A stretch of DNA of 64,000 nucleotides from positions 3,040,847-3,104,846 of the forward strand of contig CAWGOF010000003.1 in NCBI GenBank assembly GCA_963824225.1. The letters run 5' to 3'. Source of the DNA: an uncultured Acidobacteriota bacterium (GTDB lineage: Bacteria > Acidobacteriota > Polarisedimenticolia > Polarisedimenticolales > Polarisedimenticolaceae). This document shows positions 2,393 to 21,461 of the stretch, piece by piece; the first letter of the stretch is position 1; each line of letters starts with the position of its first letter. The translations under genes and the position numbers were made by a program. The notes under the pieces are model-generated. The model saw only the letters and a list, made by a program, of their open reading frames with translations. It was not told the DNA's origin and made no database searches.

Positions 2393-2446
2393 GGGGGTCA
2401 GGTCTCGGGGTCAGGTCTTAGGGTCAGACCCCGAGACCTGACCCCC
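2393..2446. repeat. palindromic repeat family 1 (GGGGTCAGGTCTC-based), copy 1, immediately after kmo stop
   Basis: gggggtcaggtctcggggtcaggtcttagggtcagaccccgagacctgaccccc; imperfect inverted repeat, same unit recurs at 11525, 12567, 18975, 21411. Confidence 0.85.
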
Positions 2447-2454
2447 AAAAAACG

Positions 2455-2964
2455 TCAGCGGCGGCGCAGGAGCCACAGCAGGCCGAGCCCCACGGCGAGC
2501 GCCCCCACGAGCAGGGCGATACGGCCCATCGCCGGCGCGCTGATCTGCATCACGCCCTCGGTCGTGACGAGGCGGATCTGGTCGCCGCCGCTCAAGTTGA
2601 ACGTGAAGGTGCCGCTGCTTATCGTCGTCAGCACGCCGCCGTCGAACCGGATCGTCTGCTGGATCAGCCCGCCGACGCACGCCAGGTTGTACTCGTACGT
2701 GTGGGACTGGCTCGTCTGGCCGCCACCCGAGAGCACGGTGGCGGAGAGCGACGCCTGGCGTCCGGCGCACGGTCCCGTGTTCTGCCACGCGTAGAGCGTC
2801 TGCGGCCGCTTGCTACAGAACCAGTCGGTGTTCCACGTGCCGGCGATCGCGTCCTCGACCTCGCTCCCGTCGCTTCCCGTCGGGATCGTGCCGTTACCCG
2901 CGACGACCGGGACCGCGGCGAAGACGGATGCCACCAAGCACAGCCCGATGCCCCAAGCTTTCAT
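2455..2964 (-). CDS. secreted hypothetical protein with C-terminal TM helix + RRR tail
   Basis: 169 aa; N-terminal signal peptide MKAWGIGLCLVASVFAAVPVVAGNG; C-terminus ...SAPAMGRIALLVGALAVGLGLLWLLRRR resembles exosortase/MYXO-type C-terminal sorting signals. Confidence 0.5.
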   Translation of the reverse strand: MKAWGIGLCLVASVFAAVPVVAGNGTIPTGSDGSEVEDAIAGTWNTDWFCSKRPQTLYAWQNTGPCAGRQASLSATVLSGGGQTSQSHTYEYNLACVGGLIQQTIRFDGGVLTTISSGTFTFNLSGGDQIRLVTTEGVMQISAPAMGRIALLVGALAVGLGLLWLLRRR

Positions 2965-3139
2965 GAGCCCCTCCAGCGGTCCCCGCCGCAGCGCGCGGCC
3001 GCCTCACCGCGACTGCCTGTTTAGTACCCGCAGCGGGCGCTCGAGGCAAGCGCGGGATTCGTCCGTGTGCTGCGGGCGATGCCGCAACCGGCGAGCAACC
3101 CGGGAAGTAGCTTAGGATTGAACCGCTTACGGGGGAAGC

Positions 3140-5416
3140 GTGGAAGACGACCGTCGAGAGTCGGCGCCGGCCGGAGACCGGACCTGGGTCCAGGGCTCGG
3201 GCGCGAGCGCCGCGCGCACGGACGAGACGATCGGCAACTACCGTGTGCTGCGCACGCTCGGCGAGGGCGGAATGGGCCTGGTCTACGAGGCCGAGCAGGT
3301 CCGCCCGGTCCGCCGGCGCGTGGCGCTGAAGGTCATCCGCACCGGGCTCGAGGGGGACGACATCCGCCTGCGCTTCGAGTCCGAGCGCCAGGCGCTGGCG
3401 CTGATGGATCACCCGGCGATCGCCCGCGTGTTCGACGCCGGGGTCACGGCCGAGGGTCGACCGTTCTTCGCCATGGAGCTGGTCGACGGCGTGCCGATCA
3501 CGGAGCTGTGCGACCGCGAGCGGCTCGACCTGAAGGAGCGGTTGCGCCTCTTCGCCCTGGTCTGCGACGGCGTCCAGCACGCGCACCAGAAGGGGATCAT
3601 CCACCGCGACATCAAGCCATCGAACGTCCTGGTCGCCGGGTCGGGCGCCGAGCGCTCGATCAAGATCATCGACTTCGGTGTGGCCAAGGCCACGACCGAG
3701 CGCCTGACCGACCGGACGTTCATGACCGAGATGGGCCAGCTCGTCGGCACGCCGCAGTACATGAGCCCCGAGCAGGCCGACATGCGCGGCCTGGACATCG
3801 ACACGCGGACCGACGTGTACCTGCTCGGCACGCTGCTCCACGAGCTGCTCACGGGCTGCCTGCCGTTCGACCCGCGGCTGCTCCACGAGCGCGGCCTGAC
3901 CGAGTACCGCCGGCAGGTGGTGGAGGTCGACCCGCTGCGCCCGAGCGAGCGGCTGGCCAAGCTCGAGCCCGCGGCGGCGCGCGAGGCCGCGCAGCTCCGC
4001 TCGACCGAGCCACTGGCGCTCGTGCGCGCGCTGCGCGGCGATCTCGACGCGATCACGGTCAAGGCGCTCGAGAAGGACCGGGCGCAGCGCTACGCCTCGG
4101 CGTCCGAGCTCGCCGCAGACGTCGGGCGGTTCCTGCGCAACGAGCCGGTGACGGCGACGCCGCCGAGCGGCCTGTACCAGCTGCGGAAGTTCGCCCGGCG
4201 CCATCGCGTGGGCGTCGCCTTCGCCTCGGTCGTGGTCGTGCTGCTCGCCGGTTTCGGCGTGTCGATGGCGGTCTACGCCTCGGCCCTCGCGCGGGCGCGC
4301 GATCGCGCGGAGAGCCAGACCCAGGCCGCGAACCAGGTGGCGGGCTACCTGGTCGACCTGTTCGACAGCAGCGATCCGGAGAAGGCGGACCGCTCGACCG
4401 TGACCGTCCTCCAGGTCCTGCACCAGGGCCGGGACCGGATCAAGGACCTCGCCGGGCAGCCGGTGCTCCAGGCCCGGATGCTGCGCACGATGGGCGAGGT
4501 GTACACGAGCGCCGGATTCCTCGAGGAAGCGCGCCCGCTCCTCGAGGATGCGCTGCGCATCAGGCGGGAGCAGCTAGAGCGCGAGCAACAGGGGGTCACC
4601 GCGCTCGACGTGGCGGAGGCCGAGACGAGCCTGGCCGGCCTGCTCGTGCAGCTCGGGGAATACGACCGCGTGCAGTCGCTCTACGCGGACGCGCTGGCCA
4701 CGCGCGAAGCCGAGCTCGGTCCGAACGACCTCGAGGTCGCGCGGAGCATGACCAACCTGGCGAACATCTTGGGCCTGACCGGCCGGGACGCAGAGGCGGA
4801 GGAGCTGCACCGGAAGGCGTTCGAGATCCGCGAGAGAACGCTCGAGCCGGACGACCCCGAGATCGCGACGAGCCGGGCGAACCAGGCGATGCACCTCGAG
4901 CGCGCGGGCAACTACGCCGAGGCGCGACCGCTCTACGAGCGAGCGCTGGCCACCTGGCGCCGGGTCGACCCGCCGAACGTCCCGCGGACGCTCGAGCGGC
5001 TCGGTTGCGTCGCCGAGGCCGAGGGCGACCTGCCGACCGCCGTTCGTTACCACGAGCAGGCGCTCGAGCTGCGCCGCTCGATCTACGGGAGCGATCACAG
5101 CGACGTGGCCAAGAGCCTGCTCGCGCTCGCGACGCTGAGCGCGCGGCAGGGCGACACGGCTCGGGCGACGGCGCTCCACGACGAGGCGCACGCGATCTAC
5201 GAGCGCGCGCACCAGCTCGACACGCCGATCGTCCAGTACCAGGAGGCGGGCTACCTGGCGACGGTCGGCCGCACGGCCGAGGCCGTGGAGCTTCTGCGCC
5301 TGGCGGTCGTCGACGGCGGCTACGCGAACGCGAACGAGCTCCTGCGCGACGTGCGCTTCCGCCCGCTCGCGGCAGATCCGGGGTTCCAGGCCATCGTCGC
5401 CGCCGCCAAGAAGTAA
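3140..5416 (+). CDS. Ser/Thr protein kinase with C-terminal TPR repeats
   Basis: 758 aa; GEGGMGLVYEA...ALKVI...HRDIKPSNVLV...DFGVAK...PQYMSPE kinase motifs, TM segment, then multiple TPR-like repeats (AEAEELHRKAFEIRE... etc.). Confidence 0.85.
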   Translation: MEDDRRESAPAGDRTWVQGSGASAARTDETIGNYRVLRTLGEGGMGLVYEAEQVRPVRRRVALKVIRTGLEGDDIRLRFESERQALALMDHPAIARVFDAGVTAEGRPFFAMELVDGVPITELCDRERLDLKERLRLFALVCDGVQHAHQKGIIHRDIKPSNVLVAGSGAERSIKIIDFGVAKATTERLTDRTFMTEMGQLVGTPQYMSPEQADMRGLDIDTRTDVYLLGTLLHELLTGCLPFDPRLLHERGLTEYRRQVVEVDPLRPSERLAKLEPAAAREAAQLRSTEPLALVRALRGDLDAITVKALEKDRAQRYASASELAADVGRFLRNEPVTATPPSGLYQLRKFARRHRVGVAFASVVVVLLAGFGVSMAVYASALARARDRAESQTQAANQVAGYLVDLFDSSDPEKADRSTVTVLQVLHQGRDRIKDLAGQPVLQARMLRTMGEVYTSAGFLEEARPLLEDALRIRREQLEREQQGVTALDVAEAETSLAGLLVQLGEYDRVQSLYADALATREAELGPNDLEVARSMTNLANILGLTGRDAEAEELHRKAFEIRERTLEPDDPEIATSRANQAMHLERAGNYAEARPLYERALATWRRVDPPNVPRTLERLGCVAEAEGDLPTAVRYHEQALELRRSIYGSDHSDVAKSLLALATLSARQGDTARATALHDEAHAIYERAHQLDTPIVQYQEAGYLATVGRTAEAVELLRLAVVDGGYANANELLRDVRFRPLAADPGFQAIVAAAKK

Positions 5417-5474
5417 AACGGGGACACTCTTCGTTTCCACCCCAAATGGGGCAGAAACCAAGAGTGTCCCCGCT
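5415..5474. repeat. palindromic repeat family 2 (GGGGACACTCT...AGAGTGTCCCC), copy A
   Basis: aaaacggggacactcttcgtttccaccccaaatggggcagaaaccaagagtgtccccgc; nested inverted repeats; related copies at 22385 and 24638. Confidence 0.8.
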
Positions 5475-5478
5475 TCCG

Positions 5479-7395
<1,917 letters not shown>

Positions 7396-7520
7396 GGGTC
7401 GGCAGCTCTCCCCTGCAGGTGGCGTCGGCGGAGCCAGCTTCCCGGGGCTGGTCCCGGCGTCCCCTAATCTACCGCGGTCGGGCGCGGGCGGCGGAACCGC
7501 GGGGTCGAGGACGCGAAAAA

Positions 7521-7569
7521 AGCGCGGAGGCGGATTCCCCCTGAGGTCACCGCCTCCGCGAACAGGGGA
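7521..7569 (-). terminator. intrinsic-terminator-like hairpin in leader between sigma54 promoter B and the activator gene
   Basis: minus-strand reading: GCGGAGGCGG-(16 nt loop)-CCGCCTCCGCG followed by CTTTTTTCGCG; same stem sequence as hairpin at 14712-14745. Confidence 0.55.
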
Positions 7570-7628
7570 GTGTGGATGAAGCGACGTCGATGGTTGCGGC
7601 ATTTCGAATTCCCTCGGCTCCTGGAAGC

Positions 7629-7644
7629 AGCAAGGCAAATGCCA
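7629..7644 (-). promoter_or_regulatory. sigma54 (-24/-12) promoter B
   Basis: minus-strand TGGCATTTGCCTTGCT = GG-N10-GC matching TGGCAC-N5-TTGCW consensus; ~235 nt upstream of activator start. Confidence 0.6.
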
Positions 7645-7695
7645 GAGCGCCACGCGCGCAAAACCCAGCGAATCCTTGGCTGCGGGGCGGGGAGC

Positions 7696-7711
7696 CTATC
7701 CGAACGGATAG
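7696..7711. promoter_or_regulatory. palindromic upstream-activator-site-like motif CTATCCG-AA-CGGATAG
   Basis: perfect palindrome 52 bp upstream of promoter B; same motif at 8541-8556 and 14576-14589. Confidence 0.5.
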
Positions 7712-7756
7712 TCGGGAGGCGGGGGGCTAACCGGTGAGATAGTCCAGAAAGGCGAA

Positions 7757-7790
7757 GGCGGGATCCTTACCGGGTCCCGCCTTCGCGCGC
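7757..7790 (-). terminator. hairpin terminator following the peptide array
   Basis: minus-strand GGCGGGACCCGGTAAGGATCCCGCC followed by TTCGCCTTTCTGG, ~25 nt after stop of peptide copy 1. Confidence 0.5.
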
Positions 7791-7813
7791 TCGAGAATCG
7801 ATGCTCGTCTCCA

Positions 7814-7888
7814 TCAGCGGATGTAGCTCTTGCGGGGCGGAAGGGCGACGGACTCGGCACCGGCTTTGATCTGGCTCTTGGTCTTCAT
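7814..7888 (-). CDS. 24-aa peptide, copy 1 of 6 (MKTKSQIKAGAESVALPPRKSYIR)
   Basis: ATG at 7886-7888 preceded by GGAGAGA; TGA stop; unit of a 100-bp tandem repeat. Confidence 0.6.
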   Translation of the reverse strand: MKTKSQIKAGAESVALPPRKSYIR

Positions 7889-7935
7889 GGCATCTCTCCG
7901 TTTTGCGTTCGGCGTTTGTGTTCGTTCGTTCCATC

Positions 7936-8010
7936 TCAGCGGATGTAGGTCTTGCGGGGCGGAAGGGAAACGGACTCGGCACCGGCTTTGATCTGGCTCT
8001 TGGTCTTCAT
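7936..8010 (-). CDS. 24-aa peptide, copy 2 (MKTKSQIKAGAESVSLPPRKTYIR)
   Basis: ATG 8008-8010 preceded by acGAGGAGaacgcc; TGA stop. Confidence 0.6.
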   Translation of the reverse strand: MKTKSQIKAGAESVSLPPRKTYIR

Positions 8011-8034
8011 GGCGTTCTCCTCGTCTGTTCGGCG

Positions 8035-8109
8035 TTAGCGGATGTAGCTCTTGCGGGGCGGAAGGGAAACGGACTCGGCACCGGCTTTGATCTGGCTCTT
8101 GGTCTTCAT
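8035..8109 (-). CDS. 24-aa peptide, copy 3 (MKTKSQIKAGAESVSLPPRKSYIR)
   Basis: ATG 8107-8109 preceded by GAGGAG 8 nt upstream; TAA stop. Confidence 0.6.
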   Translation of the reverse strand: MKTKSQIKAGAESVSLPPRKSYIR

Positions 8110-8134
8110 GGCGTTCTCCTCGTTTCGTTCGGCG

Positions 8135-8209
8135 TTAGCGGATGTAGGTCTTGCGGGGCGGAAGGGAAACGGACTCGGCACCGGCTTTGATCTGGCTCTT
8201 GGTCTTCAT
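8135..8209 (-). CDS. 24-aa peptide, copy 4 (…PPRKTYIR variant)
   Basis: ATG 8207-8209 preceded by GAGGAG; TAA stop. Confidence 0.6.
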   Translation of the reverse strand: MKTKSQIKAGAESVSLPPRKTYIR

Positions 8210-8234
8210 GGCGTTCTCCTCGTTTCGTTCAGCG

Positions 8235-8309
8235 TTAGCGGATGTAGCTCTTGCGGGGCGGAAGGGAAACGGACTCGGCACCGGCTCTGATCTGGCTCTT
8301 GGTCTTCAT
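8235..8309 (-). CDS. 24-aa peptide, copy 5 (MKTKSQIRAGAESVSLPPRKSYIR; K8R variant)
   Basis: ATG 8307-8309 preceded by GAGGAG; TAA stop; one substitution (ccggctctga) changes K to R. Confidence 0.6.
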   Translation of the reverse strand: MKTKSQIRAGAESVSLPPRKSYIR

Positions 8310-8562: not shown

Positions 8563-10713
8563 CTACGGATGGGCGATCACGAGGAGCGTCGGCGCGCGCT
8601 CGAGCACGCAGGTCATGCAGCGGCGCAGGCTCTCGGGGTCGAGCGCGGCGAAGCTCTCGTCGAGCACGACGAGCTCGGCGCGCTGGAGCAGCGCGCGGGC
8701 GATGTACACGCGGCTGCGCTCGCCGTGCGAGAGCTGCCAGCCGGTCTCGCCGACCATCTGCAGCAGGCCCGCGGGCATGCGATCGAGGAGCGGGCCGAGG
8801 CCCAGCTCGCGGCACACCTTGTCCGCCTCGGCCAGGTCGTCGACGTGGGCCGGCCAGCCGCGGCCCATCAGCAGGTTGAACGCGAGCGTTCCTGTGAGCA
8901 CGTGGTTCTCGTGGAACTGCGGCGCCGTGGCGATGCGCGAGCGCCAGGCCGGGATGCCGAGCGTCGCCCGATCGAGGCCGCCGAGGAGCACGAGCCCCGA
9001 TCCGGGCTGGCGCAGGCCGGCGACGATCGAGGCCAGAGTCGACTTCCCGCCGCCCGATGGCCCCTCGAGCAGCACGCGGTCGCCGGGATCGATGCGCAGC
9101 GAGCAGCCGCGGAGCACGGGCTCGCCGCGGTCGACGTAGCGGAACACGACGTCCGACGCCGAGACGAGCGGCCCCGCCGCGTCCGCCGCGGCGGCGCCCT
9201 TCGCGCGCTCCGCGGCGGCGGTCGCCGCAGCGGCGGCGCGGGGCGGGCGGACGATCTGGGGTCGCGCGGCCGCGCGGAAGAGCGGGGCGATCGCGCGCCA
9301 GGCCACGATCGCCCCGGCGACGTGCCGCGCGCCGCCGGCGAGGCGCGAGAGCGCCTGGTGCGCCAGGAACACGCCGCCGAGCCCGATCGCGAGCTCCTCG
9401 ACCGACGCCGTGCCGCGCACGAACGCCGGCGCGAGGCCGGCGAGACCGACGGCGAGCCAGCCGGTCGGGATCGCGAGCGACAGCGTGGCGCCCGTGCGAT
9501 CGAGATGCCGCGACCGCGCGAGCAGCCGATCGAGCGCCTCGTCCTCGCCCGCATGCCAGCGCGAGCGCGACTCCTGGGCCAGGCGCGTGCGATGGCCGAC
9601 GAGCCGCTCGACGAGGTCGTGCGTCAGGCCGACGCGCGTCCCGGTCCAACCCTCGCGTGCCCCGAGGTAGCGCAGGCCGACGAGCAGGGTCAGCGCGACC
9701 CAAGAGAACAGCGCGAGGACGTGGAGCACGCCCCCGGCCCCGAACGCCAGGACCAACGCCGCGGCGAAGATCTCGATCCCGGCGAGGATGCCGACGAGAC
9801 CCCCGCTGATGGCGAGCGACTCGACCGCTTCGGACTCGATCACCTGGCCGAGGAGCTGGCCCACGCCGCGATGCCGGATCTCCTCGGGCTCGAGGCGCAG
9901 CGCGGCGGCGAGCAGCCGGCGCTTGATCAGACCGCCCGCGGCGAGGGCGACGAGGCCCTGGCACCAGCTCGCGAGCATGCCCAGCGGAACGAGCGTCAGG
10001 AGGATCAGGGCCCAGGCGACGAGCCAGCCCGCATCGAGCCGGCCCTCGAGCGCGCCGCGGCCGATCGTCCACCACGACAGGATCCACAGCGCGCAGCTCG
10101 ACGCGTAGGCCAGGACCAGGCCGCCGAGGGCGCGCGGGAGGCCGATCCCGCGCAGCTGGTCGAGGAAGTCGGCCGACGGCGGAAGCGCGATGCTCCACAC
10201 GCCGTCGATCGGCTCCGTGCCGAGCCGCTCGCCGAGAAGCGCGTTCACCGAGCGCGCGCGGCGACCGTGTGGCACCCCGGCGCTCTCGAGGAGCCGGGCG
10301 ATCTCCACGCGCGTCGAGGCTTCGAGCGCTGAGACCTTCTCGCCGAGGACGTCGTCGATCGCGACCCACACGCGCGATCCGTCGGGCGCGAGGAGCTCGA
10401 CGCGGCGGCGGCTCCCGCGCAGGACGACGAGAAGCGCGGCGACAGCAGCGCCGATGCGCACGAGCGCCGGTCCGCTCGTGCGGAGCCACCGCGCGAGCTC
10501 GGCGTGCGACAGGCCGAGCTCGTCGATCTCGATGCCGATCCAGGCCGCGGCCTCGTCGAGCCAGCGCTCGAGCGCTTTGCGGTCGCGCGGCGGAGGGCCC
10601 GCATCCCCGAGCGCCCGCGGCTCGAGACCGGCGTCCGCGGTGAGCGCCTCGAGCGCATCGCCCAGGCGGTCGAACGGCCAGGCGTACGCCGCGATCCCCG
10701 TCGCGCGGCTCAC
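8563..10713 (-). CDS. ABC transporter, fused permease/ATP-binding protein (no peptidase domain)
   Basis: six-TM region then ABC ATPase: GPSGGGKST Walker A, LSHGERSRVYIARAL signature, VLDESFAALD Walker B; probable GTG start overlapping stop of upstream PCAT gene (GTGA). Confidence 0.7.
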   Translation of the reverse strand: MSRATGIAAYAWPFDRLGDALEALTADAGLEPRALGDAGPPPRDRKALERWLDEAAAWIGIEIDELGLSHAELARWLRTSGPALVRIGAAVAALLVVLRGSRRRVELLAPDGSRVWVAIDDVLGEKVSALEASTRVEIARLLESAGVPHGRRARSVNALLGERLGTEPIDGVWSIALPPSADFLDQLRGIGLPRALGGLVLAYASSCALWILSWWTIGRGALEGRLDAGWLVAWALILLTLVPLGMLASWCQGLVALAAGGLIKRRLLAAALRLEPEEIRHRGVGQLLGQVIESEAVESLAISGGLVGILAGIEIFAAALVLAFGAGGVLHVLALFSWVALTLLVGLRYLGAREGWTGTRVGLTHDLVERLVGHRTRLAQESRSRWHAGEDEALDRLLARSRHLDRTGATLSLAIPTGWLAVGLAGLAPAFVRGTASVEELAIGLGGVFLAHQALSRLAGGARHVAGAIVAWRAIAPLFRAAARPQIVRPPRAAAAATAAAERAKGAAAADAAGPLVSASDVVFRYVDRGEPVLRGCSLRIDPGDRVLLEGPSGGGKSTLASIVAGLRQPGSGLVLLGGLDRATLGIPAWRSRIATAPQFHENHVLTGTLAFNLLMGRGWPAHVDDLAEADKVCRELGLGPLLDRMPAGLLQMVGETGWQLSHGERSRVYIARALLQRAELVVLDESFAALDPESLRRCMTCVLERAPTLLVIAHP

Positions 10714-13379
10714 GCGTTCTCTCGGACGCGCCCGTCGTCCAGGCGAAACCTGCGCCACGAGCGCGTGCTCTCGAGCCCGTCCCGCAGCTCGCGCTCGGTG
10801 TCGAGGAGCGCGCCGAGGCGCGAATCGGGCTTGCGTGTCAGCTCTGAGGGTGCTCCGTCCTCGACGATCCGTCCGTTCTCGACGACGAGGACGCGCTCGA
10901 AGGATGCGGCGTCCGAGACGTCGTGGGTGATGCACACGAGCGTCGCCGCGCGCCATTCCTTGCGCACGGCGGCGAGGAGCCTTGCGCGCTGCGCCCGATC
11001 GAGGCCGCGGAACGGCTCGTCGAGGATCGCCAAGCGCACGTCCTCGCGCAGGAGCGCGCGGCCGAGGCGCACGCGCTGGCCCTCACCGCCCGAGACGAGC
11101 GCCCCGCCTTCGCCGAGCGCGGTCTGCAGGCCGTCGGGCAGCCGCTCGACGAGCTTGCGCATCTCGGCCACCTCGAGCGCGCGGCCGACGGCGGTGCCGT
11201 CGGCGCCGGGCCCGCCGTACTGCAGGTTGTCGAGGAGCGAGCGGTTCCAGATCTGCACGGCGGGATCGACCCACGCGGTTCTCTCGCGGAGCCAGGCGAT
11301 GCGCGGGGCATCGAGCGGAGCGCCGTCGACCGTGATCGCACCTGAAGACGCCCGGTGCCAGCCGAGGAGCAGGCCGACGAGCGTCGACTTGCCGGCGCCC
11401 GACGGGCCGACGATCGCCACGTGTTCGCCGGCTCCGATGTCGAGCCGCACGTTGGTCAGGATCTCGTGGCCCGCAGCGCGCACGCTCACGCCGTCGAGCT
11501 CGATCCGTACGCCAGAAGAAGAAGTGGGGTCAGGTCTCGGGGTCAGGTCTTTCGACCTGACCCGCAGACCTGACCCCACCTCGTCCTCCATCTCCTCCGG
11601 CGCACCGAGCGGCTCGAGGAGGCGGAGCGTGAGGTTGCGCACCTCGGGGTACTGGCGCAGCGCGAGAGCCAAGCTCTGTCCGAGCGCCGGGAGGTGCAGG
11701 GCCCAGAAGACGAGGAGCAGGACGACCGACGCATCGCCGCCACGCGCGGCATGGGCCAGGACGATCCACGCCGCAAGTCCGAACCCGCACACGCCCCCGA
11801 GCGCCTCGACGCCGACGAGGGCGCTCTGAAGCGCGACGCCGGCGCGGGCCCACTTCGCGAGAAGCGACTCGTGCTCGCGCCTGACGGCGCGCTCGGCCCG
11901 ATGGCAGCGGATCGGGACGAGGCCGAGAAGGGCGTCGAAGTAGAACCGGCTCAGCGCGCCGACGTGCGTCCGCACGCGCATGTCGCGCTCGACGAGGAGC
12001 GGCTGCGCGCACAGGGGCAGCGCGACCGAGACGCTCGCCAGGATGCAGGCCAGGGGCGCGCTCGCCGGGTCGAGCCATGTGATCCCGGCGACGGTGAGCA
12101 CGAGGCCGAAGAGCGCATGGAGCGCCTGGCGTCCGATCTCGGGCAGCTCGCGAATCTGATGCAGGCTGTGGCTGCGCTCGGCCATGTCCGACGCGAGACG
12201 GCTGTGGAAGTACCGGTCGGGCAGACGCGGGATCTTGCGCAGGAACGCGACGCGCAGGCGCAGCTCGAGCTTGCGCCCAAGTCTCAGGACACCGGCGGCG
12301 AGCGGGATCTCGAGGAGCGCGAGCGCGGTAAGGAACAGCAGCACGGCCGCCGTCGCCGCGAGGCGCTGCCGCGCAAGCCCGAGGTCCGACCACACGTGCA
12401 GCAGGCCGCGAAACACGAGCGCCTCGACGAGCACGCCCGCGGCGGCGAGGCCGAGCGCGGAGACGAGGACCGTCGGCGCAAGGAGGCCGTCCGCGCGCAG
12501 CAGGCGCAGCAGCTCGCGGCCCGCTCGCGCGGGCCGCTCCTCGAGCGCCGAGGCGAGCTCCACGGAGGGGTCAGGTCTCGGGGTCAGGTCTTTCGACCTG
12601 ACCCCGTTCACCCTGACAAGCACGATGCCGCTCGCGGCGACCCGCTCCTGCCCCTCGGGCCCGGCCTCGGCTGGCTTGACCGACCAGCATCCGGCCGGGA
12701 TCGCCGCACCGTCGGCGTTCTCGACGAGCGCGTCGAGGACGCGCAGACACTCGGTCCCGCGCGCCAGCCCGCCCGACCGCACGATCGCGGTCACCGCCCG
12801 CGTCGCCGCGTCGAGCGTGGCGAGCTTGCGCCAGCCCTCGTCGGTCGACGCTGCGCCGATGCGCTCGGCGATCGTCGTGCGCTCGAGCCCCAGGGCCGAA
12901 AGCCTCGAGCCGAGCGGCTCGAGGAACGCAGGTGAGCCGGCCCACTCGCGCCAGTACGCCGCATCGACCACCGACTCGTGGATGTAGGCGTCGTCGAGGA
13001 GCCTCTCCCCCGAGATCCACTTGCGCCCTGTGGCGGGGTCCATCACCTGAACCAGGCCGCCGTGCTTGCGCCAGGCCACGACGAAATGCGTGGCTCCGCT
13101 CGGCGAGCGCACGACGAGCAGCGCCGGGAGCTGCGCCCGACCTGGGAGGAGCAGATGATCGGGCGGGATCAGGATCTGCTCGGCCTCGAGCCCCGCGCGC
13201 TGCGCGACCTCTTCGAGCGTGTCGATCGACGTCCCGTCGAGGTCGGTCTGGCACGCCTCGCGCAGCCGGCCGTAGCTCGCGTGGATCCCGAACCCCTGGA
13301 GCAGGCACGCCAGGGCCGCGGGCCCGCAATCCATCGCCGACGTCTGGACGATCTCGGGCGCGAAGTACCGCGGGATCAT
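10710..13379 (-). CDS. peptidase-containing ABC transporter (PCAT): N-terminal C39 peptidase + permease + ATPase
   Basis: 889 aa; N-terminal QTSAMDCGPAALACLLQGFGI C39 cysteine motif; TM domain; GPSGAGKST Walker A, LSGGEGQRVRLGRAL signature, ILDEPFRGLD Walker B; two in-frame palindromic repeat insertions. Confidence 0.8.
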   Translation of the reverse strand: MIPRYFAPEIVQTSAMDCGPAALACLLQGFGIHASYGRLREACQTDLDGTSIDTLEEVAQRAGLEAEQILIPPDHLLLPGRAQLPALLVVRSPSGATHFVVAWRKHGGLVQVMDPATGRKWISGERLLDDAYIHESVVDAAYWREWAGSPAFLEPLGSRLSALGLERTTIAERIGAASTDEGWRKLATLDAATRAVTAIVRSGGLARGTECLRVLDALVENADGAAIPAGCWSVKPAEAGPEGQERVAASGIVLVRVNGVRSKDLTPRPDPSVELASALEERPARAGRELLRLLRADGLLAPTVLVSALGLAAAGVLVEALVFRGLLHVWSDLGLARQRLAATAAVLLFLTALALLEIPLAAGVLRLGRKLELRLRVAFLRKIPRLPDRYFHSRLASDMAERSHSLHQIRELPEIGRQALHALFGLVLTVAGITWLDPASAPLACILASVSVALPLCAQPLLVERDMRVRTHVGALSRFYFDALLGLVPIRCHRAERAVRREHESLLAKWARAGVALQSALVGVEALGGVCGFGLAAWIVLAHAARGGDASVVLLLVFWALHLPALGQSLALALRQYPEVRNLTLRLLEPLGAPEEMEDEVGSGLRVRSKDLTPRPDPTSSSGVRIELDGVSVRAAGHEILTNVRLDIGAGEHVAIVGPSGAGKSTLVGLLLGWHRASSGAITVDGAPLDAPRIAWLRERTAWVDPAVQIWNRSLLDNLQYGGPGADGTAVGRALEVAEMRKLVERLPDGLQTALGEGGALVSGGEGQRVRLGRALLREDVRLAILDEPFRGLDRAQRARLLAAVRKEWRAATLVCITHDVSDAASFERVLVVENGRIVEDGAPSELTRKPDSRLGALLDTERELRDGLESTRSWRRFRLDDGRVRENA
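11525..11578. repeat. palindromic repeat family 1, copy 2, in-frame inside PCAT gene (encodes ...EVGSGLRVRSKDLTPRPDPTSSS...)
   Basis: ggggtcaggtctcggggtcaggtctttcgacctgacccgcagacctgacccca located between permease and ATPase domains without interrupting the ORF. Confidence 0.8.
12567..12605. repeat. palindromic repeat family 1, copy 3, in-frame inside PCAT gene (encodes ...GVRSKDLTPRPDP...)
   Basis: ggggtcaggtctcggggtcaggtctttcgacctgacccc between C39 peptidase and permease domains. Confidence 0.8.
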
Positions 13380-14768: not shown

Positions 14769-16451
14769 ATGATTCGCACCCTTATCCGCCTGACGATCGT
14801 TGCGCTCGCAGTTCCGGTCGCCGCCCAGCACGCGCACCACGCCGAGCTCGGCGACGATCGCGCGTTGCAGGACGACCCACGACTCGCCGAGGGCCAGATC
14901 GCGCCGCTCCTCGACGGCCTGGGGGAGCATCACCACAAGGTGACGACGACGTCCGAGCAGGCCCAGCGGTTCTTCGACCAGGGGCTCAAGCTGGCCTACG
15001 GGTTCAACCACCGGGAAGCCCTGCGCGCGTTCAAGGAAGCGGCGCGGCTCGATCCCGACTGCGCGATGGCGTACTGGGGCTGGGCCCTCGTCCTCGGCCC
15101 GAACATCAACCTGCCGATGCCGAAGGACGCGGTGCCCCAGGCGTGGGACGCGATGCAGCTCGCGCTCGCGAAGCGCGACCGCGCAAGCGAGCCCGAGCGC
15201 GCGTACATCGACGCCCTGGCCCAGCGCTACACGAAGGACCCCGACGCCGACCGACTGTCGCTCGATCGGGCGTACGCCGACGCGATGCGCGAGCTCCACA
15301 AGCGCTACCCCGAGGACACGGACGCGGCGACGCTCTTCGCCGAAGCGTTGATGGACGTGTCGCCGTGGAACTACTGGACGCGCGAGGGCAAGCCACGCGA
15401 GAGCACGCTCGAGCTCGTGGCCACGCTCGAGGACGTGCTACGGGCCGACCCGACGCACGAGGGGGCGCTGCACTACTACATCCACGCGGTCGAGGCGGTC
15501 GACGCGGCCCGCGGTGCGGCGGCGGCCGATCGCCTGCGCCCGCTCGCGCCGGGCGCGGGGCACCTGCTGCACATGCCGTCCCACCTGTACATCCAGCTCG
15601 GCCGCTACGCCGACGCGTTCGAGGCCAACGCCCTTGCCGCGCGCTCGGACGAGACCTACGTCACCCAGTGCCGGGCCCAGGGGATCTACCCCCTGAACTA
15701 CTTCCCGCACAACCTGCACTTCCTGGCCTGGGCCGCGTTCTACCAGGGTCGCGGCAAGGAGGCGCTCGAGGCGGCCAACAAGGTGCGCGCCGGCGTGCCC
15801 GCCGATCTCTCGGGGAACGACTGGGGGTTGTTCGAGACGTTCCTGAGCATGCCGCTCTACACGATGGTGCGCTTCGGGATGTGGAACGAGATCCTGGCCG
15901 AGCGCGAGCCGCCGAAGGAGCGGAAGCTCTCGACCGGCGTGTGGCACTACGCCCGGGGCCGCGCATACGCGGCGACGGGCCGCGCGTCCGAGGCCAAGCG
16001 CGAGCTCGCGCGCGTCGAGGCGCTGGCCGAGGACCCGGCGAGCGCCGACGCGCTCGTGGGCTACGCGAACGCGGCGCGCCTGCTCGACATCGCGCGCTAC
16101 GTGCTCGCGGGCGAGATCGCCTCGGCCGAGAAGCGCCACGCCGAGGCGGTCATGCATCTCGATCGCGCGACACGGCTCGAGGACAGCCTGGCCTACAACG
16201 AGCCGCCCGACTGGTACTACCCGGTGCGCCACTCGCTCGGCGCGGCGCTGCTCGAAGCGAAACGGCCGGTCGAGGCCGAGGTCGTGTACTGGCAGGACCT
16301 GCGCAAGTACCCCGAGAACGCCTACGCGCTCTACGGCCTGTGGCGCGCGGCCGAGGCCCAGGGCAAAACCGCGGACGCCGAGGAGTACGAGTCGCGCTAT
16401 CGCGCCGCGTGGTCCAAGGCCGACGCGCCGCTGAAGTCGTCGCGGTACTAA
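14769..16451 (+). CDS. secreted hypothetical protein, TPR-like helical repeats
   Basis: 561 aa; signal peptide MIRTLIRLTIVALAVPVAAQHAHHA; helical repeat-rich; no recognised catalytic motif. Confidence 0.5.
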   Translation: MIRTLIRLTIVALAVPVAAQHAHHAELGDDRALQDDPRLAEGQIAPLLDGLGEHHHKVTTTSEQAQRFFDQGLKLAYGFNHREALRAFKEAARLDPDCAMAYWGWALVLGPNINLPMPKDAVPQAWDAMQLALAKRDRASEPERAYIDALAQRYTKDPDADRLSLDRAYADAMRELHKRYPEDTDAATLFAEALMDVSPWNYWTREGKPRESTLELVATLEDVLRADPTHEGALHYYIHAVEAVDAARGAAAADRLRPLAPGAGHLLHMPSHLYIQLGRYADAFEANALAARSDETYVTQCRAQGIYPLNYFPHNLHFLAWAAFYQGRGKEALEAANKVRAGVPADLSGNDWGLFETFLSMPLYTMVRFGMWNEILAEREPPKERKLSTGVWHYARGRAYAATGRASEAKRELARVEALAEDPASADALVGYANAARLLDIARYVLAGEIASAEKRHAEAVMHLDRATRLEDSLAYNEPPDWYYPVRHSLGAALLEAKRPVEAEVVYWQDLRKYPENAYALYGLWRAAEAQGKTADAEEYESRYRAAWSKADAPLKSSRY

Positions 16452-17032
16452 CGCTTCCCCGACCTCGCACACTGGCGATAGCGGAAACAGTTGGTCAGGT
16501 GGTCGTTGACCATCCCCACCGCCTGCATGTGGGCGTACAGGATCGTCGAGCCGACGAACGAGAAGCCGCGCTTCTTCAAGTCTTTGCTCCACGCGTCCGA
16601 GATCTCGGTCCGCACCGGCACGTCCCCTCGCGCGGCGAAGCGGTTCTGCAGCGGGCGGCCGCCGACGAAGCCCCACTGGTAGGCGGCGAAGCTCCCGAAC
16701 TCCTTCTGCACGGCAAGGAACGCTCGCGCGTTTTTGACTGCGGACTCGACCTTCAGCCGGTTGCGCACGATCCCCGGATCCTCGAGCAGGCGCTCGACCT
16801 TGCGCGCATCGAACCGGGCGACCTTGGCCGGAACGAAGCCGGCGAACGCCCGGCGGTACGCGTCGCGCTTGCGCAGGATCGTGATCCACGAGAGCCCGGC
16901 CTGCGCGCCCTCGAGCACGAGGAACTCGAAGAGTGCGTTGTCGTCGTGGACCGGGACGCCCCACTCCTCGTCGTGGTACGTGACGTAGAGCGGGTCGGTG
17001 CCGGCCCAGTCGCAGCGCGTGCGGCGGCTCAT
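16448..17032 (-). CDS. tag: DNA-3-methyladenine glycosylase I
   Basis: ...YHDEEWGVPVHDDNALFEFLVLEGAQAGLSWITILRKRDAYRRAF... strongly Tag-like; start MSRRTRCDW chosen. Confidence 0.75.
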   Translation of the reverse strand: MSRRTRCDWAGTDPLYVTYHDEEWGVPVHDDNALFEFLVLEGAQAGLSWITILRKRDAYRRAFAGFVPAKVARFDARKVERLLEDPGIVRNRLKVESAVKNARAFLAVQKEFGSFAAYQWGFVGGRPLQNRFAARGDVPVRTEISDAWSKDLKKRGFSFVGSTILYAHMQAVGMVNDHLTNCFRYRQCARSGKR

Positions 17033-17778
17033 CCGGCCACCCGGTACCACGCGCGCCCGAGCCACTCGTGGAGCGCGAACGTGCTTTCCTGCAGCGCACT
17101 CGTGCGCGGGATGAAGTCGCCGAGGCGCACGTGGCCTTCGTGGGCGATCCCGGTTGGGGCGGGGATGACCTCGAGCCCCTGGGCCTCGAACGCCGCCTTC
17201 GCGCGCGGGATGTGCGTCGCGCTCGTGACGAGCAGGATCCGGCTCACGCCCGACTCGCGCAGGAGCCGGGCGCTATCCCGCGCGTTCGCCAGCGTGTTCC
17301 GCGACTCGGACTCGACCCAGCGGGCCTTGAGTGCGAACTCCTCCTCGAGCGTCTCGGCCATCATCTCTCCGAGCGGCCGGTACCCCTTCTGCAGTCGACC
17401 GCCGGTGACGAGCATCGGCAGACCGGTTTTCCTGTGGAGCCAGGCGCCGTAGCGCAGGCGCATCAGCGTGAGGAGGCCGATCGTGTCCTTGCCCCCGTAC
17501 TCCGGGGCCGAAGGGTACACATCGCCGCTGAGGATGACGATCGCTTCCGCTTTGGTGGCCGGGCCCAGGACGTCGACCGGCTTCGCGCGCTCGAGCGTCG
17601 AGGCGAGCCAGCTGCTGCACACGGGGATGCTCAGGAGGGCCAGGAGCACCCACGCCGCGACGAGGAGCGCCGTGCCGAGCCGCGGTCGCGCACGCCTCAG
17701 CGCGAGACCGATGGCGGCGAGAACCAGGATGCCTCCCGGCGGAAGCACCAGTGCCTTGATGATCGCGGGCAAGAGCAT
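17029..17778 (-). CDS. DUF218/YdcF (SanA/ElyC-like) family membrane protein
   Basis: N-terminal TM helices, AIVILSGDVYP...RLRYGAWLHRKTGLPMLVTGG...ILLVTSATHIPRA motifs typical of DUF218. Confidence 0.55.
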   Translation of the reverse strand: MLLPAIIKALVLPPGGILVLAAIGLALRRARPRLGTALLVAAWVLLALLSIPVCSSWLASTLERAKPVDVLGPATKAEAIVILSGDVYPSAPEYGGKDTIGLLTLMRLRYGAWLHRKTGLPMLVTGGRLQKGYRPLGEMMAETLEEEFALKARWVESESRNTLANARDSARLLRESGVSRILLVTSATHIPRAKAAFEAQGLEVIPAPTGIAHEGHVRLGDFIPRTSALQESTFALHEWLGRAWYRVAG

Positions 17779-17896
17779 GGGATCTCCATCGAGCACCGCC
17801 GCCTGGGGCGGCCGCCGCCCGGGGCGGCGCCCGGCGCATCATAATGCGACCGTGCTCGGGCTTGCCCACACGCGCGCTCGGCCCTAGCTTGGCCGC

Positions 17897-19015
17897 ATGC
17901 GTCGCGCCGCGCGCCCGCTCGTGTGCCTCGCGATCCTCGCCGGCGGGCTCGTCGTCGCCGAGATCGTCGCGCGGACGACCCACCCCGAGGCTCGGCCCCG
18001 CGCGATCGTCGAGCAGCTCGAGCGCGAGCGCAAGCGGTTGCGGACGCCCGACGCCGAGTTTCACCACGTCGGCGAGGGGATCTTCCACCTCGACTTCCCG
18101 CCCGCGGGTGCGGGACCGGCGCCGCGGGTCCTCGTCGTCGGCGACTCGTTCGCCATGGGCCACGGCGTGGGGATCGATGCGCGCTTCGGCGCGCGTCTCG
18201 GCCAGCGGATGCGGGGCATCGCCGAGGTCGACGTGCTCGCGGCGACGAGCTACTCGCCGATCGTGTACCGCAACATCGTGCGCAAGGCGGTGGGGCTGAA
18301 CCGCTACGCCTGTGTCGCCGTGTTCGTCGACCAAACCGACCCGGCGGACGACGTCGTCTATCGCAACGACCTCGTGGGGGAAGACGCGCACGGGTTCGAC
18401 GTGGCCATGATGCGCGAGCGCCTCGCCGTCCTCGGGGCGACGTACGACCGGATGGAGGCCGGCCTCACCGGCCTGCGCGGCCTCCCGCGGCAGCTGGCCC
18501 TGGTCAACGTAGTGTTCCCGCCGCCCTCGATCATCGGTGCGCTCGCGGCCGAGAGCCCGCACCGCCGGTACGTCGAGCTGTCCTACGCGCGGCTGCAACT
18601 GACGCGGACCTTCGACGAGGCGCCCGAGTCGAGCCTCGCTCGCACGATGACGGCGAGCGTGCTCCAGCACCTCGACGAGACGGTGTCGCTCGCACGGGCG
18701 AACGGGGCGCAGGTCATCCTCGCGGCCAACCCGTGGGAGGACCAGGTGTCGAAGTCTCCGCGCGTCCCGCGGGCCTCCTCGGGCCCGTACCCGCGGGAGA
18801 ACCAGCTCGAGCGGCTCCTCGTTGAGCGCTACGGCAAGCTCTCGGGCGTCGTCGTCCTCGAGCTGACCGCCGCGTTCCGCGCCGCGCCCGACCCGTCGCG
18901 CCTGTTCCTCGACGTTCCGGCACACGAGGTGCACTGGAACGCCGAAGGCCACGAGCTCGTCGCCGCCGTCCTGTGGGGTCAGGTCTCGGGGTCAGGTCTC
19001 AGGGTCAGGTCTTAG
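17897..19015 (+). CDS. SGNH/GDSL-type hydrolase family protein
   Basis: signal/TM N-terminus, RVLVVGDSFAMGHGV GDS(x) motif; last 12 codons and stop are supplied by palindromic repeat copy 4. Confidence 0.55.
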   Translation: MRRAARPLVCLAILAGGLVVAEIVARTTHPEARPRAIVEQLERERKRLRTPDAEFHHVGEGIFHLDFPPAGAGPAPRVLVVGDSFAMGHGVGIDARFGARLGQRMRGIAEVDVLAATSYSPIVYRNIVRKAVGLNRYACVAVFVDQTDPADDVVYRNDLVGEDAHGFDVAMMRERLAVLGATYDRMEAGLTGLRGLPRQLALVNVVFPPPSIIGALAAESPHRRYVELSYARLQLTRTFDEAPESSLARTMTASVLQHLDETVSLARANGAQVILAANPWEDQVSKSPRVPRASSGPYPRENQLERLLVERYGKLSGVVVLELTAAFRAAPDPSRLFLDVPAHEVHWNAEGHELVAAVLWGQVSGSGLRVRS

Positions 19016-19026
19016 GGTCTGACCCC
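18975..19026. repeat. palindromic repeat family 1, copy 4
   Basis: ggggtcaggtctcggggtcaggtctcagggtcaggtcttagggtctgacccca. Confidence 0.85.
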
Positions 19027-19049
19027 ATCAACGTTATCCTGGTCGAGCC

Positions 19050-21410
19050 GTGATCGGCCGGGAGCTCAACCAGTACCGGATCGTGGCCCAGCTCGGCAAG
19101 GGCGGGATGGGCGAGGTGTACCTGGCCCACGACACGCAGCTCGACCGCAAGGTCGCGCTGAAGATCCTTCCGCCCGAGATGGCCGCATCGCCCCAGCGCG
19201 TCGAGCGGTTCAAGCGCGAGGCCCGGGCCGTCGCTGCGCTGACCCACCCGAACATCGTCACGATCCACTCGGTCGAGGAGGCGCGGGGCCTGCACTTCCT
19301 GACGATGGAGCTCGTGACCGGGAAGACGCTCGACGCGCTGATCGCGCAGGACGGGCTGCCGCTCGAGCGGATCTTCGACGTCGCGATCCCGCTCGCCGAC
19401 GCGCTGAGCGAGGCCCACGCCAAGGGCATCACGCATCGCGACCTCAAGCCGGCGAACGTGATGGTCACGGACGACGGCCGCGTCAAGGTCCTCGACTTCG
19501 GCCTGGCCAAGTTCCACGAGTCTGCCGGCGCGGACGACGAGCGCGCCCCGACACGCACGCTGACCGAGGAAGGCGCGCTCGTCGGCACGATGCCCTACAT
19601 GTCGCCCGAGCAGGTCAAGGGCGCGCCGGTCGACCATCGGTCGGACATCTTCTCCCTGGGCGTGATCCTGTACGAGATGGCGACCGGCAAGCGCCCGTTC
19701 GGCGGGGCCTCGTCGGCCGAGCTGATCTCGGCGCTCCTGCGCGACGATCCGCCGGCGGTGAGCGACGTCAACGCGTCGGTCCCCCGGCACCTCGGGCGGA
19801 TCATCCGGATGTGCCTGGAGAAGGACCCGGCCCAGCGCTACCAGTCGGCCGCCGACGTGCGCAACGAGCTGCGAGCGCTGCGGATGGAAGTCGCCTCGGG
19901 CGTGACCGAGGCCCGGGCGCGGCCGCGCGTGTCCCGCACGCGCGCGTTACCCCTCGTCGTGCTCGGCGTCGTGGCCGTCGCCGTCCTCGCGGCGCTCGTG
20001 GCCTGGCAGCTCCGTGGGCAGCGCAAGATCGCCACACCCGAGCAGGCGCAGGTGTCGGTCGCCGTGCTCCCGTTCCGCAACATGAGCGGCGACGCGGCGC
20101 TCGCGTTCCTCGCGCTCGCGATCCCGGACGAGGTCACGACAGCGCTCAGCCGCACTCCCGGCCTGTCGCTGCGCCCCTTCTCGAGCACGACGCGGTACAC
20201 GGGAGACGATGTCGACGTCCGGGGGGCCGGTCGCGAGCTCGGCGCGTCGACCGTGGTCACCGGGCAGTTCTTCCGCCAGGGTCAAGATCTGCGTCTGACG
20301 CTCGAGGCGGTCGACGTCGAAAAGAACGAGGCGATCTGGCACGACGGGGTGACCGTCCGAGCCGACGACCTGCTCGCGCTCCGCAGCCAGGTGTCCGATC
20401 GAATCCGCTCCGGTCTCGTTCCCGACCTCGTCGGGACCGACGCGGGCGCCGCCGGGACCCAGCCGTCGAACCCCGAAGCCTACGATCTCTACTTGCGCAG
20501 CCTCGCCATCCCGAACGATCCGGAGCCTGGGCGCGAGACGATCCGGATGCTCGAGCGCGCCGTGGCGCTCGACCCCAAATACGCGCCGGCCTGGACCGAG
20601 CTCGGCGAGCGGTACAGCTTCGAGGCGGCCTATGGCGCGGGCGGCGAGGCGTTCTACCCCAAGGCTATCGACGCGCTGCGCCGGGCGATCGATCTCGACC
20701 CGAACCTGCCCGTGCCCGCGGGTCTTCTGCTGCAGATCGAGGTCGAGAGCGGACATCTCGAGCAGGGCTACGACACGGCCCGCGAGCTCCTCGAGCGGTT
20801 CCCGCGGAGCGCCGCTCTCCACTTCTCGATGTCCTACGTCCTGCGCTACGGCGGCTTGTTCGACGAAGCGGCGCGCGAGTGCAACACGGCCTATGGCCTC
20901 GATTCGACCGATCCGGGCTTTCGTTCGTGTGGCATCACGTTCTACATGCTCGGGGACTACGAGCGCGCCGAGGTGTTCTTCGAGCTCTCGGACTCGCAGT
21001 TCAGCGTGATCCAGCGCTGGAACAGCCTGATGAGGCAGCACAAGGACGCGGAGGCGCTCGTGATGCTCGATCGCCTACCAGCCTCGCCCATGCGCGAGTT
21101 CGGGCGAGCGTGCCTCAGCGGTGCCAAGCCCGCGGAGCTGGCTGTGCTCGCCGCAGATGTCGCGAAGCAGACGGCAGACCAACGCGACGGCGAATCCCAG
21201 TACATATACGGCACGATCTTCAGCCGCTGCGGCCAGCGACAGCTCGCGCTCGAGCGGCTCGCGCTCGCCGTCGAGCGCAACTACTGCGCCTATCCGCTGA
21301 TGGAGTCGGACCCGCTGCTCGAGAGCATGCGTGGCGATCCGGAGCTCGCCAAGATCGTCGTCGCCGGCCGCGCCTGCCGGCAAAGGTTCGAGAAGCATCG
21401 TCAAACGTAG
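19050..21410 (+). CDS. Ser/Thr protein kinase with TM segment and C-terminal TPR-like domain
   Basis: 786 aa; GKGGMGEVYLAHD...ALKIL...HRDLKPANVMV...DFGLAK...MPYMSPE. Confidence 0.85.
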   Translation: MIGRELNQYRIVAQLGKGGMGEVYLAHDTQLDRKVALKILPPEMAASPQRVERFKREARAVAALTHPNIVTIHSVEEARGLHFLTMELVTGKTLDALIAQDGLPLERIFDVAIPLADALSEAHAKGITHRDLKPANVMVTDDGRVKVLDFGLAKFHESAGADDERAPTRTLTEEGALVGTMPYMSPEQVKGAPVDHRSDIFSLGVILYEMATGKRPFGGASSAELISALLRDDPPAVSDVNASVPRHLGRIIRMCLEKDPAQRYQSAADVRNELRALRMEVASGVTEARARPRVSRTRALPLVVLGVVAVAVLAALVAWQLRGQRKIATPEQAQVSVAVLPFRNMSGDAALAFLALAIPDEVTTALSRTPGLSLRPFSSTTRYTGDDVDVRGAGRELGASTVVTGQFFRQGQDLRLTLEAVDVEKNEAIWHDGVTVRADDLLALRSQVSDRIRSGLVPDLVGTDAGAAGTQPSNPEAYDLYLRSLAIPNDPEPGRETIRMLERAVALDPKYAPAWTELGERYSFEAAYGAGGEAFYPKAIDALRRAIDLDPNLPVPAGLLLQIEVESGHLEQGYDTARELLERFPRSAALHFSMSYVLRYGGLFDEAARECNTAYGLDSTDPGFRSCGITFYMLGDYERAEVFFELSDSQFSVIQRWNSLMRQHKDAEALVMLDRLPASPMREFGRACLSGAKPAELAVLAADVAKQTADQRDGESQYIYGTIFSRCGQRQLALERLALAVERNYCAYPLMESDPLLESMRGDPELAKIVVAGRACRQRFEKHRQT

Positions 21411-21461
21411 GGGTCAGGTCTCGGGGTCTGACCCCGAGACCTGACCCCGAGACCTGACCCC
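21411..21461. repeat. palindromic repeat family 1, copy 5
   Basis: ggggtcaggtctcggggtctgaccccgagacctgaccccgagacctgacccc; overlaps stop codon of PP2C gene. Confidence 0.85.

Follow-up and report, generated by a model that had tools for sequence, protein, structure and literature searches.

A family of short palindromic repeats resembling REP-type elements at gene ends and within a gene of an uncultured Acidobacteriota bacterium

RAYT-like genes, that is, genes resembling those of the transposases associated with repetitive extragenic palindromic (REP) sequences (REP-associated tyrosine transposases, RAYTs), have been described under the name 'TIRYT'; they encode tyrosine transposases, have long inverted repeats on both sides and form 'TIRtrons' (Di Nocera, De Gregorio and Rocco 2013; PMC3733652). 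Some of the terminal inverted repeats (TIRs) flanking TIRYT genes share the sequence GGGGWSAS and form moderately abundant families (PMC3733652). The same study noted that REPs lie mostly downstream of open reading frames (ORFs), that REP termini can provide TAG stops, and that some REPs are found inside ORFs (PMC3733652). Another precedent is that of the Rickettsia palindromic elements (RPEs), which are inserted in frame in unrelated protein genes and translated at tolerant surface or linker positions (PMC10969869). The present analysis concerns a palindromic repeat family, family 1, with five copies (E1 to E5) in a 64,000-nt stretch of DNA, hereafter the window, from contig CAWGOF010000003.1 of an uncultured Acidobacteriota bacterium. 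We give a probability of about 65% to the reading that the five elements are one family of short, non-autonomous palindromic elements of the REP/REPIN or 'TIR-repeat' kind, mobilised by a RAYT-like enzyme and found at positions where their harm is limited. They look like ordinary, though undescribed, selfish REP-type elements, and not like dedicated terminators.

The resemblance to the TIR repeats of TIRtrons (PMC3733652) begins with the sequence of the repeat ends and may extend to the occurrence of dimers and clusters. The units of all five elements start with the head GGGGTCAG, which fits GGGGWSAS, and so does the head GGGGACAC of a second palindromic family in the window. A motif screen for RAYT-like genes, covering 418 kb, returned a single ORF of 291 aa in contig L025 (GC 0.45), which matched Pfam Y1_Tnp at 50.5 bits and the NCBIfam model of the REP-associated tyrosine transposase, NF047646, at 84.1 bits (cutoff 80). 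This ORF lies between 24-nt inverted repeats, GGGTCAGGTCTTGAATCGTGAATT, beginning GGGTCAGGTCTTGA, and 4.3 kb from it is a transposase-less copy, one end of which is made up of four to five 13-nt heads in tandem. Contigs as different in base composition as L022 (GC 0.71) and L025 have 21 nt of the head in common. The clearest TIRYT group was found in Acidobacteria (PMC3733652), and one of the exact matches to the family-1 unit is an Acidobacteriota metagenome-assembled genome (MAG), L002. Family 1 differs from TIRtron repeats in that the window copies consist almost only of heads, arranged as tandem 13-nt units.

With the REP sequences, bacterial interspersed mosaic elements (BIMEs) and REPINs of E. 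coli and Pseudomonas, the family shares short hairpin repeats, inverted pairs and a lack of target duplication, as well as a location mostly just past the stops of convergent or co-directional genes (three of the five window copies and most of the related copies), the donation of TAG stops by element termini, and the presence of some copies within ORFs. Those repeats are linked to a Y1 enzyme of the IS200/IS605 type, and the family-1 head is likewise linked to a Y1 gene, that of L025. Family 1 differs from them in having no consistent GTAG/CGTC tag and in the prominence of direct tandem units; moreover, a REP unit is an imperfect palindrome of 20-40 nt, whereas the 13-nt unit of family 1 forms no stem-loop alone. 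An in-frame palindromic insertion that is translated as an extra peptide is common to family 1 and the RPEs, but the latter are about 100-150 nt long, restricted to Rickettsia, unrelated in sequence and mostly intragenic, while the family-1 elements of the window are 39-52 nt long and lie mostly at gene ends.

Repeat unit, element architecture and gene context

The 13-mer GGGGTCAGGTCTC was matched 15 times in the window with no more than two mismatches, against an expectation of 2.77 +/- 1.63, and none of 100 shuffles reached 15. The repeat family proposed in the first-pass annotation is therefore real, and the five positions assigned to it there (2393, 11525, 12567, 18975 and 21411) were right within 1 nt. 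All 15 matches are grouped into E1 to E5, and Tandem Repeats Finder reported a 13-nt period at each; the five copies lie within 21 kb, and none was found in the remaining 43 kb of the window. Nine of the units are exact copies of GGGGTCAGGTCTC, spread over five separate and unrelated sequence contexts.

Forward units number one to three in each element and precede the reverse units, of which there are zero to two. E1 (2394..2445, 52 nt, no strand assigned) has two forward units, the fused centre AGGGTCAGACCCC and one reverse unit, and in E2 (11526..11577, minus strand, 52 nt) a GAAA/TTTC centre separates two forward units from two reverse ones. E3 (12567..12605, 39 nt), which is read on the minus strand, shows two forward units and a single reverse unit when written on the plus strand. 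E4 (18975..19026, plus strand, 52 nt) carries three forward units and a fused centre with no full reverse unit, and E5 (21410..21461, 52 nt, no strand assigned) a single forward unit, joined through the centre GGGGTCTGACCCC to two reverse units. The centres are of two types, a fused half-unit GGGGTC[A/T]GACCCC in E1, E4 and E5, and GGTC-TTTC-GACC in E2 and E3. As the unit itself is not palindromic, a hairpin arises only from oppositely oriented units.

Real reading frames in this genome (GC about 70%) were identified through third-position GC. Three of the copies stand at gene ends in just the manner that the first-pass annotation had described. The first was said to follow directly on a kmo stop, and E1 indeed starts 7 nt past the TGA (2384-2386) of a KMO-like FAD monooxygenase ORF (989..2386, plus strand); it lies between convergent stops, ending 9 nt short of the stop of an ORF on the minus strand (2455..2964). 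E4 was credited with the last 12 codons and the stop of an SGNH hydrolase, and it does encode the final 12 codons, GQVSGSGLRVRS, and the TAG (19013-19015) of a GDSL/SGNH-like hydrolase ORF (17897..19015, plus strand). E5, described as containing the stop of a PP2C phosphatase, is positioned exactly between the TAG (21408-21410) of a Ser/Thr kinase-TPR ORF (19050..21410, plus strand) and that of a SpoIIE/PP2C phosphatase ORF (21461..22429, minus strand; CTA at 21461-21463). Each of these two stops shares its G with the element, and the perfect palindrome TAGGGG...CCCCTA holds them both.

The description of all five copies as gene-end elements could not be maintained, since E2 and E3 are inside a single ORF of 889 aa (10710..13379, minus strand), in frame. 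The phase of third-position GC is constant from 10760 to 13400, across both elements, which fits a single minus-strand ORF. The protein has an N-terminal Peptidase_C39 and a C-terminal ABC_tran domain (Pfam), on either side of E2 and E3, and its best named homologues (57-58% identity) are from Acidobacteriota. E3 is translated as GVRSKDLTPRPDP in the linker that follows the C39 peptidase domain, and E2 as GSGLRVRSKDLTPRPDP in the linker that joins the membrane domain to the ATPase domain. Each of the two elements has one stop-free frame on the coding strand, and it is precisely this frame that the C39-ABC ORF uses. In an alignment with 12 homologues, both insertions fell in two linkers that were variable in length and unalignable. 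The palindrome of E2 runs 11 nt further into both flanks (11515-11588; GAAGAAGAAGT and ACCTCGTCCTC, complementary at 8 of 11 positions), and the adjacent residues TSSS are encoded by ACT TCT TCT TCT, T-ending codons that are unusual in this genome; the same residues in the related contig L039 are encoded by ACG TCG AGC TCG. The flank of E2 may have been remodelled together with the element.

Forward arrays have no stop in any of the three frames and encode GVRSRGQVSGSGL cyclically (rich in Gly, Ser, Arg and Val), while every reverse unit has one TGA and the variant CTTAGGG adds a TAG. Because 13 is 1 modulo 3, each further reverse unit closes a further frame. On entering a copy, an ORF either ends within a few codons or passes through in the single open frame. 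The donation of stop codons put forward in the first-pass annotation is real, but as a purpose it is not upheld; it is better seen as an outcome of the sites at which insertion can be tolerated.

Gain, loss and length change in related contigs

Contig L042 shows about 77% nucleotide identity to the window and is syntenic with it over about 24 kb. The E5 site is empty there (TAG-atc-TCA between the kinase and phosphatase genes), E2 and E3 are both absent, and E2 is also absent from contig L040. At the E4 site L042 has a native SGNH tail, EQAVARLPDAGLVIAAER, which E4 replaces in the window; conserved anchors on the two sides stand 67 nt apart in L042 and 59 nt apart in the window. The peptide INVILVEP, which ends a frame after E4, was considered as the displaced old C-terminus of the SGNH protein and rejected, as a comparison with L042 identifies this sequence as the conserved spacer before the kinase start. 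L042 has a family-1 copy of its own (GGGGTCAGGTCTCG, a 32-nt core, then CGAGACCTGACCCC), which contains the TGA of its VWA gene. The counterpart of this junction in the window is occupied by another palindrome, GGGGACACTC...GAGTGTCCCC, and the TAG of the window VWA ORF lies within it. The presence of two different families at one orthologous junction is, together with the head-only tandem 13-nt architecture, an unusual detail of family 1.

This palindrome belongs to the second family mentioned above, which has three copies in the window. That at 24642-24694 is the one exactly where L042 has its family-1 copy, that at 5420-5471 lies between convergent ORFs (3140..5416 and 5479..7653), and that at 22392-22469 lies between the divergent PP2C and VWA starts.

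Other relatives differ from the window in the number of units and in the content of the elements. L039 (85% nucleotide identity; 89% aa identity in the ABC protein) has an ordinary linker in place of E2, and at the E3 site a 51-nt version (12+13+13+13), in which the extra unit is one base short and the frame is kept. In P0003, an ABC homologue of 78% identity, the E2 site reads GSGLGVRSRDLTPRPDP, and what stands in the place of E3 is a decayed version, GVASKDVTREP. In L045 (91-93% nucleotide identity) the same heads surround a 92-nt core at the E1 site, 119 nt in total, and a second copy, placed between convergent genes and over the 3' end of a radical-SAM gene, is a perfect 62-nt palindrome (GGGGTCAGGTCTCGAATCTTAGTGTCAGC-TCTC-reverse complement) with a 29-bp stem, a folding energy of -60.5 kcal/mol and a z score of -13. 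The empty sites, the unit-number variants and the longer 119-nt form indicate that the elements have been gained and are fast-changing. The public Joint Genome Institute gene call for the L039 protein P0007 (79-1899) starts at a GTG just after the element, unlike the reading frame itself, which continues upstream through the element to the contig edge.

Variation in unit number at orthologous sites (39 nt against 51 nt at E3 in L039, and 52 nt against 119 nt at E1 in L045), and the tandem head arrays that are present in unrelated genomes, could also be expected of repeats that never moved but originated in place, where a small GGGGTC/GACCCC palindrome gave rise to replication slippage and template switching. 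We consider such an origin highly unlikely, given the nine exact 13-mer copies in unrelated contexts, the empty orthologous sites in relatives, and the head with extended similarity in other genomes and around a transposase gene. Slippage nevertheless surely contributes to unit number.

The intragenic copies raise a separate matter, namely whether they have been domesticated, be it as flexible modules of linkers or tails, or as RNA hairpins at which translation would pause between domains. Their positions are exactly at domain boundaries, and the E2 peptide differs from that of P0003 at only 2 of 17 residues, in proteins that are 78% identical and whose adjacent linker differs much more. However, the closest relative, L039, has an ordinary linker and no E2, other homologues carry unrelated linkers of similar length, and recent re-insertion, or gene conversion by other copies, could explain the conservation of E2 equally well. 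Domestication is accordingly regarded as very improbable.

Head motif, mobility and distribution

The conserved part of the family is the 13-16-nt head GGGGTCAGGTCTYGA, with an interior that varies by lineage, a combination that fits the expected look of a transposase recognition end. The REP/BIME-like character suggested in the first-pass annotation is borne out by the bias to gene ends, the supply of tail codons and stops, and the same head around the REP-associated tyrosine transposase gene of L025. The family has been filed with the REP, REPIN and TIR-repeat elements on this basis: it has the GGGGWSAS sequence but lacks both the regular tag and a target duplication.

The manner of movement that would best account for these features starts from the head as functional core, with copies composed of one to three tandem heads facing zero to two inverted heads. 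Relatives keep the same heads and an inner core of 30-90 nt, and the window copies have lost this core. A RAYT-like HUH/Y1 tyrosine transposase, encoded outside the window, would recognise the head, and copies would spread in trans via single-stranded hairpin intermediates, leaving no target-site duplication; the number of units would be altered by slippage or by repeated joining of heads. Copies would survive only where they do little harm, such as between convergent stops, over dispensable C-terminal tails, or in frame in variable inter-domain linkers, so that position would be set by purifying selection and tolerance and not by function. Mobilisation by a RAYT-like enzyme in this particular genome is what we infer.

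A DDE transposase would offer a different means of mobility. Tn3-family inverted repeats begin with GGGG(TC), and family 1 might consist of classical miniature inverted-repeat transposable elements, that is, deletion derivatives of insertion sequences with GGGG... inverted repeats (for example Tn3-like or TA-targeting) that move by cut-and-paste. Terminal inverted repeats do surround variable cores in L042, L045 and L002, and E5 has TA on both sides. But a TA target-site duplication was rejected since it was seen at E5 alone, and neither E1-E4 nor the L042 copy nor the two L045 copies showed a target-site duplication. No DDE transposase lies beside any copy, the sole autonomous-looking copy (L025) carries a Y1/RAYT gene, and distant blastn searches of 72,556 plasmids with the L002 composite and with E2 gave no match. 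An origin of this kind is therefore rated as quite improbable.

Copies in soil metagenomes adjoin unrelated housekeeping genes, mostly at their 3' ends. An aconitase ends in RGQV in two relatives, a phosphorylase in GQVSGSGL and a convergent ORF in DLTPRPDP, and a single copy contains the ends of both an RlaP gene and a sigma-factor gene. A transposase gene was sought beside the copies in ten metagenome loci and this candidate was rejected; the neighbours were aconitase, glycogen phosphorylase, a sigma factor, a type II secretion ATPase and the like. Among GTDB representatives, a set that apparently lacks the source species, the exact two-unit pattern was present in only two MAGs, one from Nitrospirales and one, L002, from Acidobacteriota. 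In L002 it belongs to a nested composite of about 160 nt with the inverted repeats GGGGTCAGGTCTCGAAAyCCGACCTTTCG. The two-unit pattern did not occur in viral contigs. A synthetic repeat peptide of 40 aa drew no candidates from a set of 5.8 billion proteins, an outcome that is owed to the word index of that search. Compared with 1.84 billion protein representatives, the 33-aa E2 peptide had no match at E <= 0.001, a query too short to give such a search power, and a literature search for 12-mers of the unit returned only unrelated eukaryotic or viral primer matches.

L001, L003, L005 and L018 (39-53% GC) contain purely tandem arrays, in which the 13-nt unit is repeated four to seven times and has no inverted counterpart. 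The Nitrospirales MAG (L001; OY820905.2) has an array of seven units at 2540-2630. These arrays may be homologous to family 1 or may be chance 13-nt minisatellites.

A more far-reaching proposal is that tandem head arrays reflect a distinct RAYT-like mode, in which iterative cleavage and joining would add one head per cycle, and that the product is a portable 'linker-or-stop' cassette, shaped for insertion tolerance by its period of 1 modulo 3 and by forward units that encode only flexible Gly/Ser/Arg peptide, which colonises coding sequence and remodels C-termini and linkers across phyla. Tandem heads recur in unrelated genomes (the seven units of the Nitrospirales MAG; L003, L005 and L025), the same head is found from GC 0.45 to 0.72, and E2 is more conserved than its flanking linker. 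Simple slippage and selection also accommodate these observations, and the proposal is considered distinctly unlikely.

Several results weigh against RAYT-driven mobility of REP-type elements. The only transposase-linked copy is that of a distant organism, L025, and the inner sequence of its inverted repeats is different. No Y1 transposase was found in the window, either by Pfam searches of 38 ORFs or by the motif screen. The left flanks of E1 to E5 read ..TTGG, ..GTGG, ..GGAG, ..GTGG and ..GTAG, so that of the five only E5 has the canonical REP tag GTAG, with GTGG at E2 and E4 and neither of the two at E1 and E3; the unit, as noted, is also no palindrome in itself. Insertions are not clean, as the net gain at E2 relative to L039 is 33 nt and not 52, and E4 swaps 67 nt for 59, for which secondary indels must be assumed. 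E2 is common to the window and the 78% identical P0003 but is absent from the 89% identical homologue, a distribution that needs loss, re-insertion or gene conversion. Finally, the metagenome matches were ascertained with the two-unit pattern, and some of the low-GC ones may be chance 13-nt tandem repeats.

Hairpins, neighbouring features and significance

Inverted units fold at -33 to -61 kcal/mol in four of the five window copies. Folding is very strong for E1, E2 and E5 (-47 to -61 kcal/mol, z -6.5 to -9.5; on the two strands, -50/-47 kcal/mol for E1 and -55/-61 kcal/mol for E2), moderate for E3 (about -33 kcal/mol, z about -4) and weak for E4 (-27.1/-22.9 kcal/mol, z -1.6/-3.4). The first-pass annotation, which had all copies forming strong hairpins and probably doubling as transcription terminators, went too far in both respects. 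A terminator scan of 2000-21999 called 11 sites, none of them at E1-E5, and no element is followed by a T/U-run, the post-stem sequences of E1 to E5 being CAAAAAAC, ACCTCG, GTTCAC, ATCAAC and TAGCCT. A GC-rich stem-loop right after a stop codon, as at E1 and E5, is shared with intrinsic terminators, but family 1 has no U-tract, one copy barely folds, and two are tolerated inside an ORF, for which reasons a terminator role is unsupported. The stable E2 lies upstream of the ATPase domain in a long ORF, and an efficient terminator at that point would destroy the gene. The canonical terminators of this genome, such as the hairpin+T sites at 14594-14607 and 14712-14744, differ in look from E1-E5, and Rfam searches of the whole window at gathering thresholds gave no matches.

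A broader form of the same idea is that the elements are functional RNA hairpins, selected at gene ends either as factor-independent terminators or as 3'-end stabilisers. REP and BIME sequences of E. coli are reported to stabilise upstream mRNA. This stabilisation was restated as a hypothesis in PMC3733652, and for E1, E4 and E5, the copies at 3' ends, it is possible. The folding energies of E1, E2 and E5 agree with an RNA function, as does the position of three of the five window copies, and of most copies in related contigs, at or just past stops. Against it, the region has canonical hairpin+T sites and no copy has a T-run or a terminator call, E2 and E3 are within a long ORF and upstream of its ATPase domain, the fold of E4 is weak (z -1.6), and the orthologous junctions of L042 work with no element at all. 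Selection for RNA hairpins is thus an unlikely explanation of the family, and selfish REP-type elements in tolerated positions remain the preferred one.

Several other features of the window deserve mention. On the minus strand, a tandem array of six units, each about 100 bp long (97% matches) and encoding a 24-aa peptide, MKTKSQIKAGAESVSLPPRKSYIR, occupies 7814-8409. An ABC gene, the C39-peptidase ABC gene and a HlyD gene follow directly downstream of it, and the corresponding place in L042 is taken by three 24-aa genes. The units look like multiple precursor copies of an exported peptide resembling a bacteriocin or a ribosomally synthesised and post-translationally modified peptide. A stretch at about 32800-57000 has a lower GC (0.65, against 0.70-0.73) and no copies of family 1 or the second family. 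It carries a tyrosine integrase (32872-33819), an AbiEi antitoxin (38136-38858), N- and C-terminal GmrSD domains (39490-41651) and parts of a type I restriction-enzyme helicase (46710-48574), and is probably an integrated defence island. About 2.6 kb at 26703-29642 has no counterpart in the otherwise syntenic L042 and its ORFs have no Pfam matches; within it, only two short blocks at 27729-27999 match L042, at 92-94%.

The general picture is unchanged by these findings, as REPs at gene ends, REP-derived stops and intragenic REPs had already been documented. In annotation, such repeats will lead gene callers to misplace stops or to split genes, a disturbance of which the P0007 call is an example, and several protein C-terminal tails in this region are repeat-derived and not native. 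The window provides a compact case outside Rickettsia of palindromic repeats that lie in frame inside a functional gene and rewrite tails and linkers. The little-studied GGGGWSAS repeats tied to RAYT-like transposases gain from it a concrete sequence family, whose head of 13-16 nt is conserved across very different genomes. If the family is indeed of this kind, a RAYT-like gene would be expected in the source genome between inverted copies of GGGGTCAGGTCTCGA, and the recognition rules of these enzymes would become testable if that cognate gene is found.

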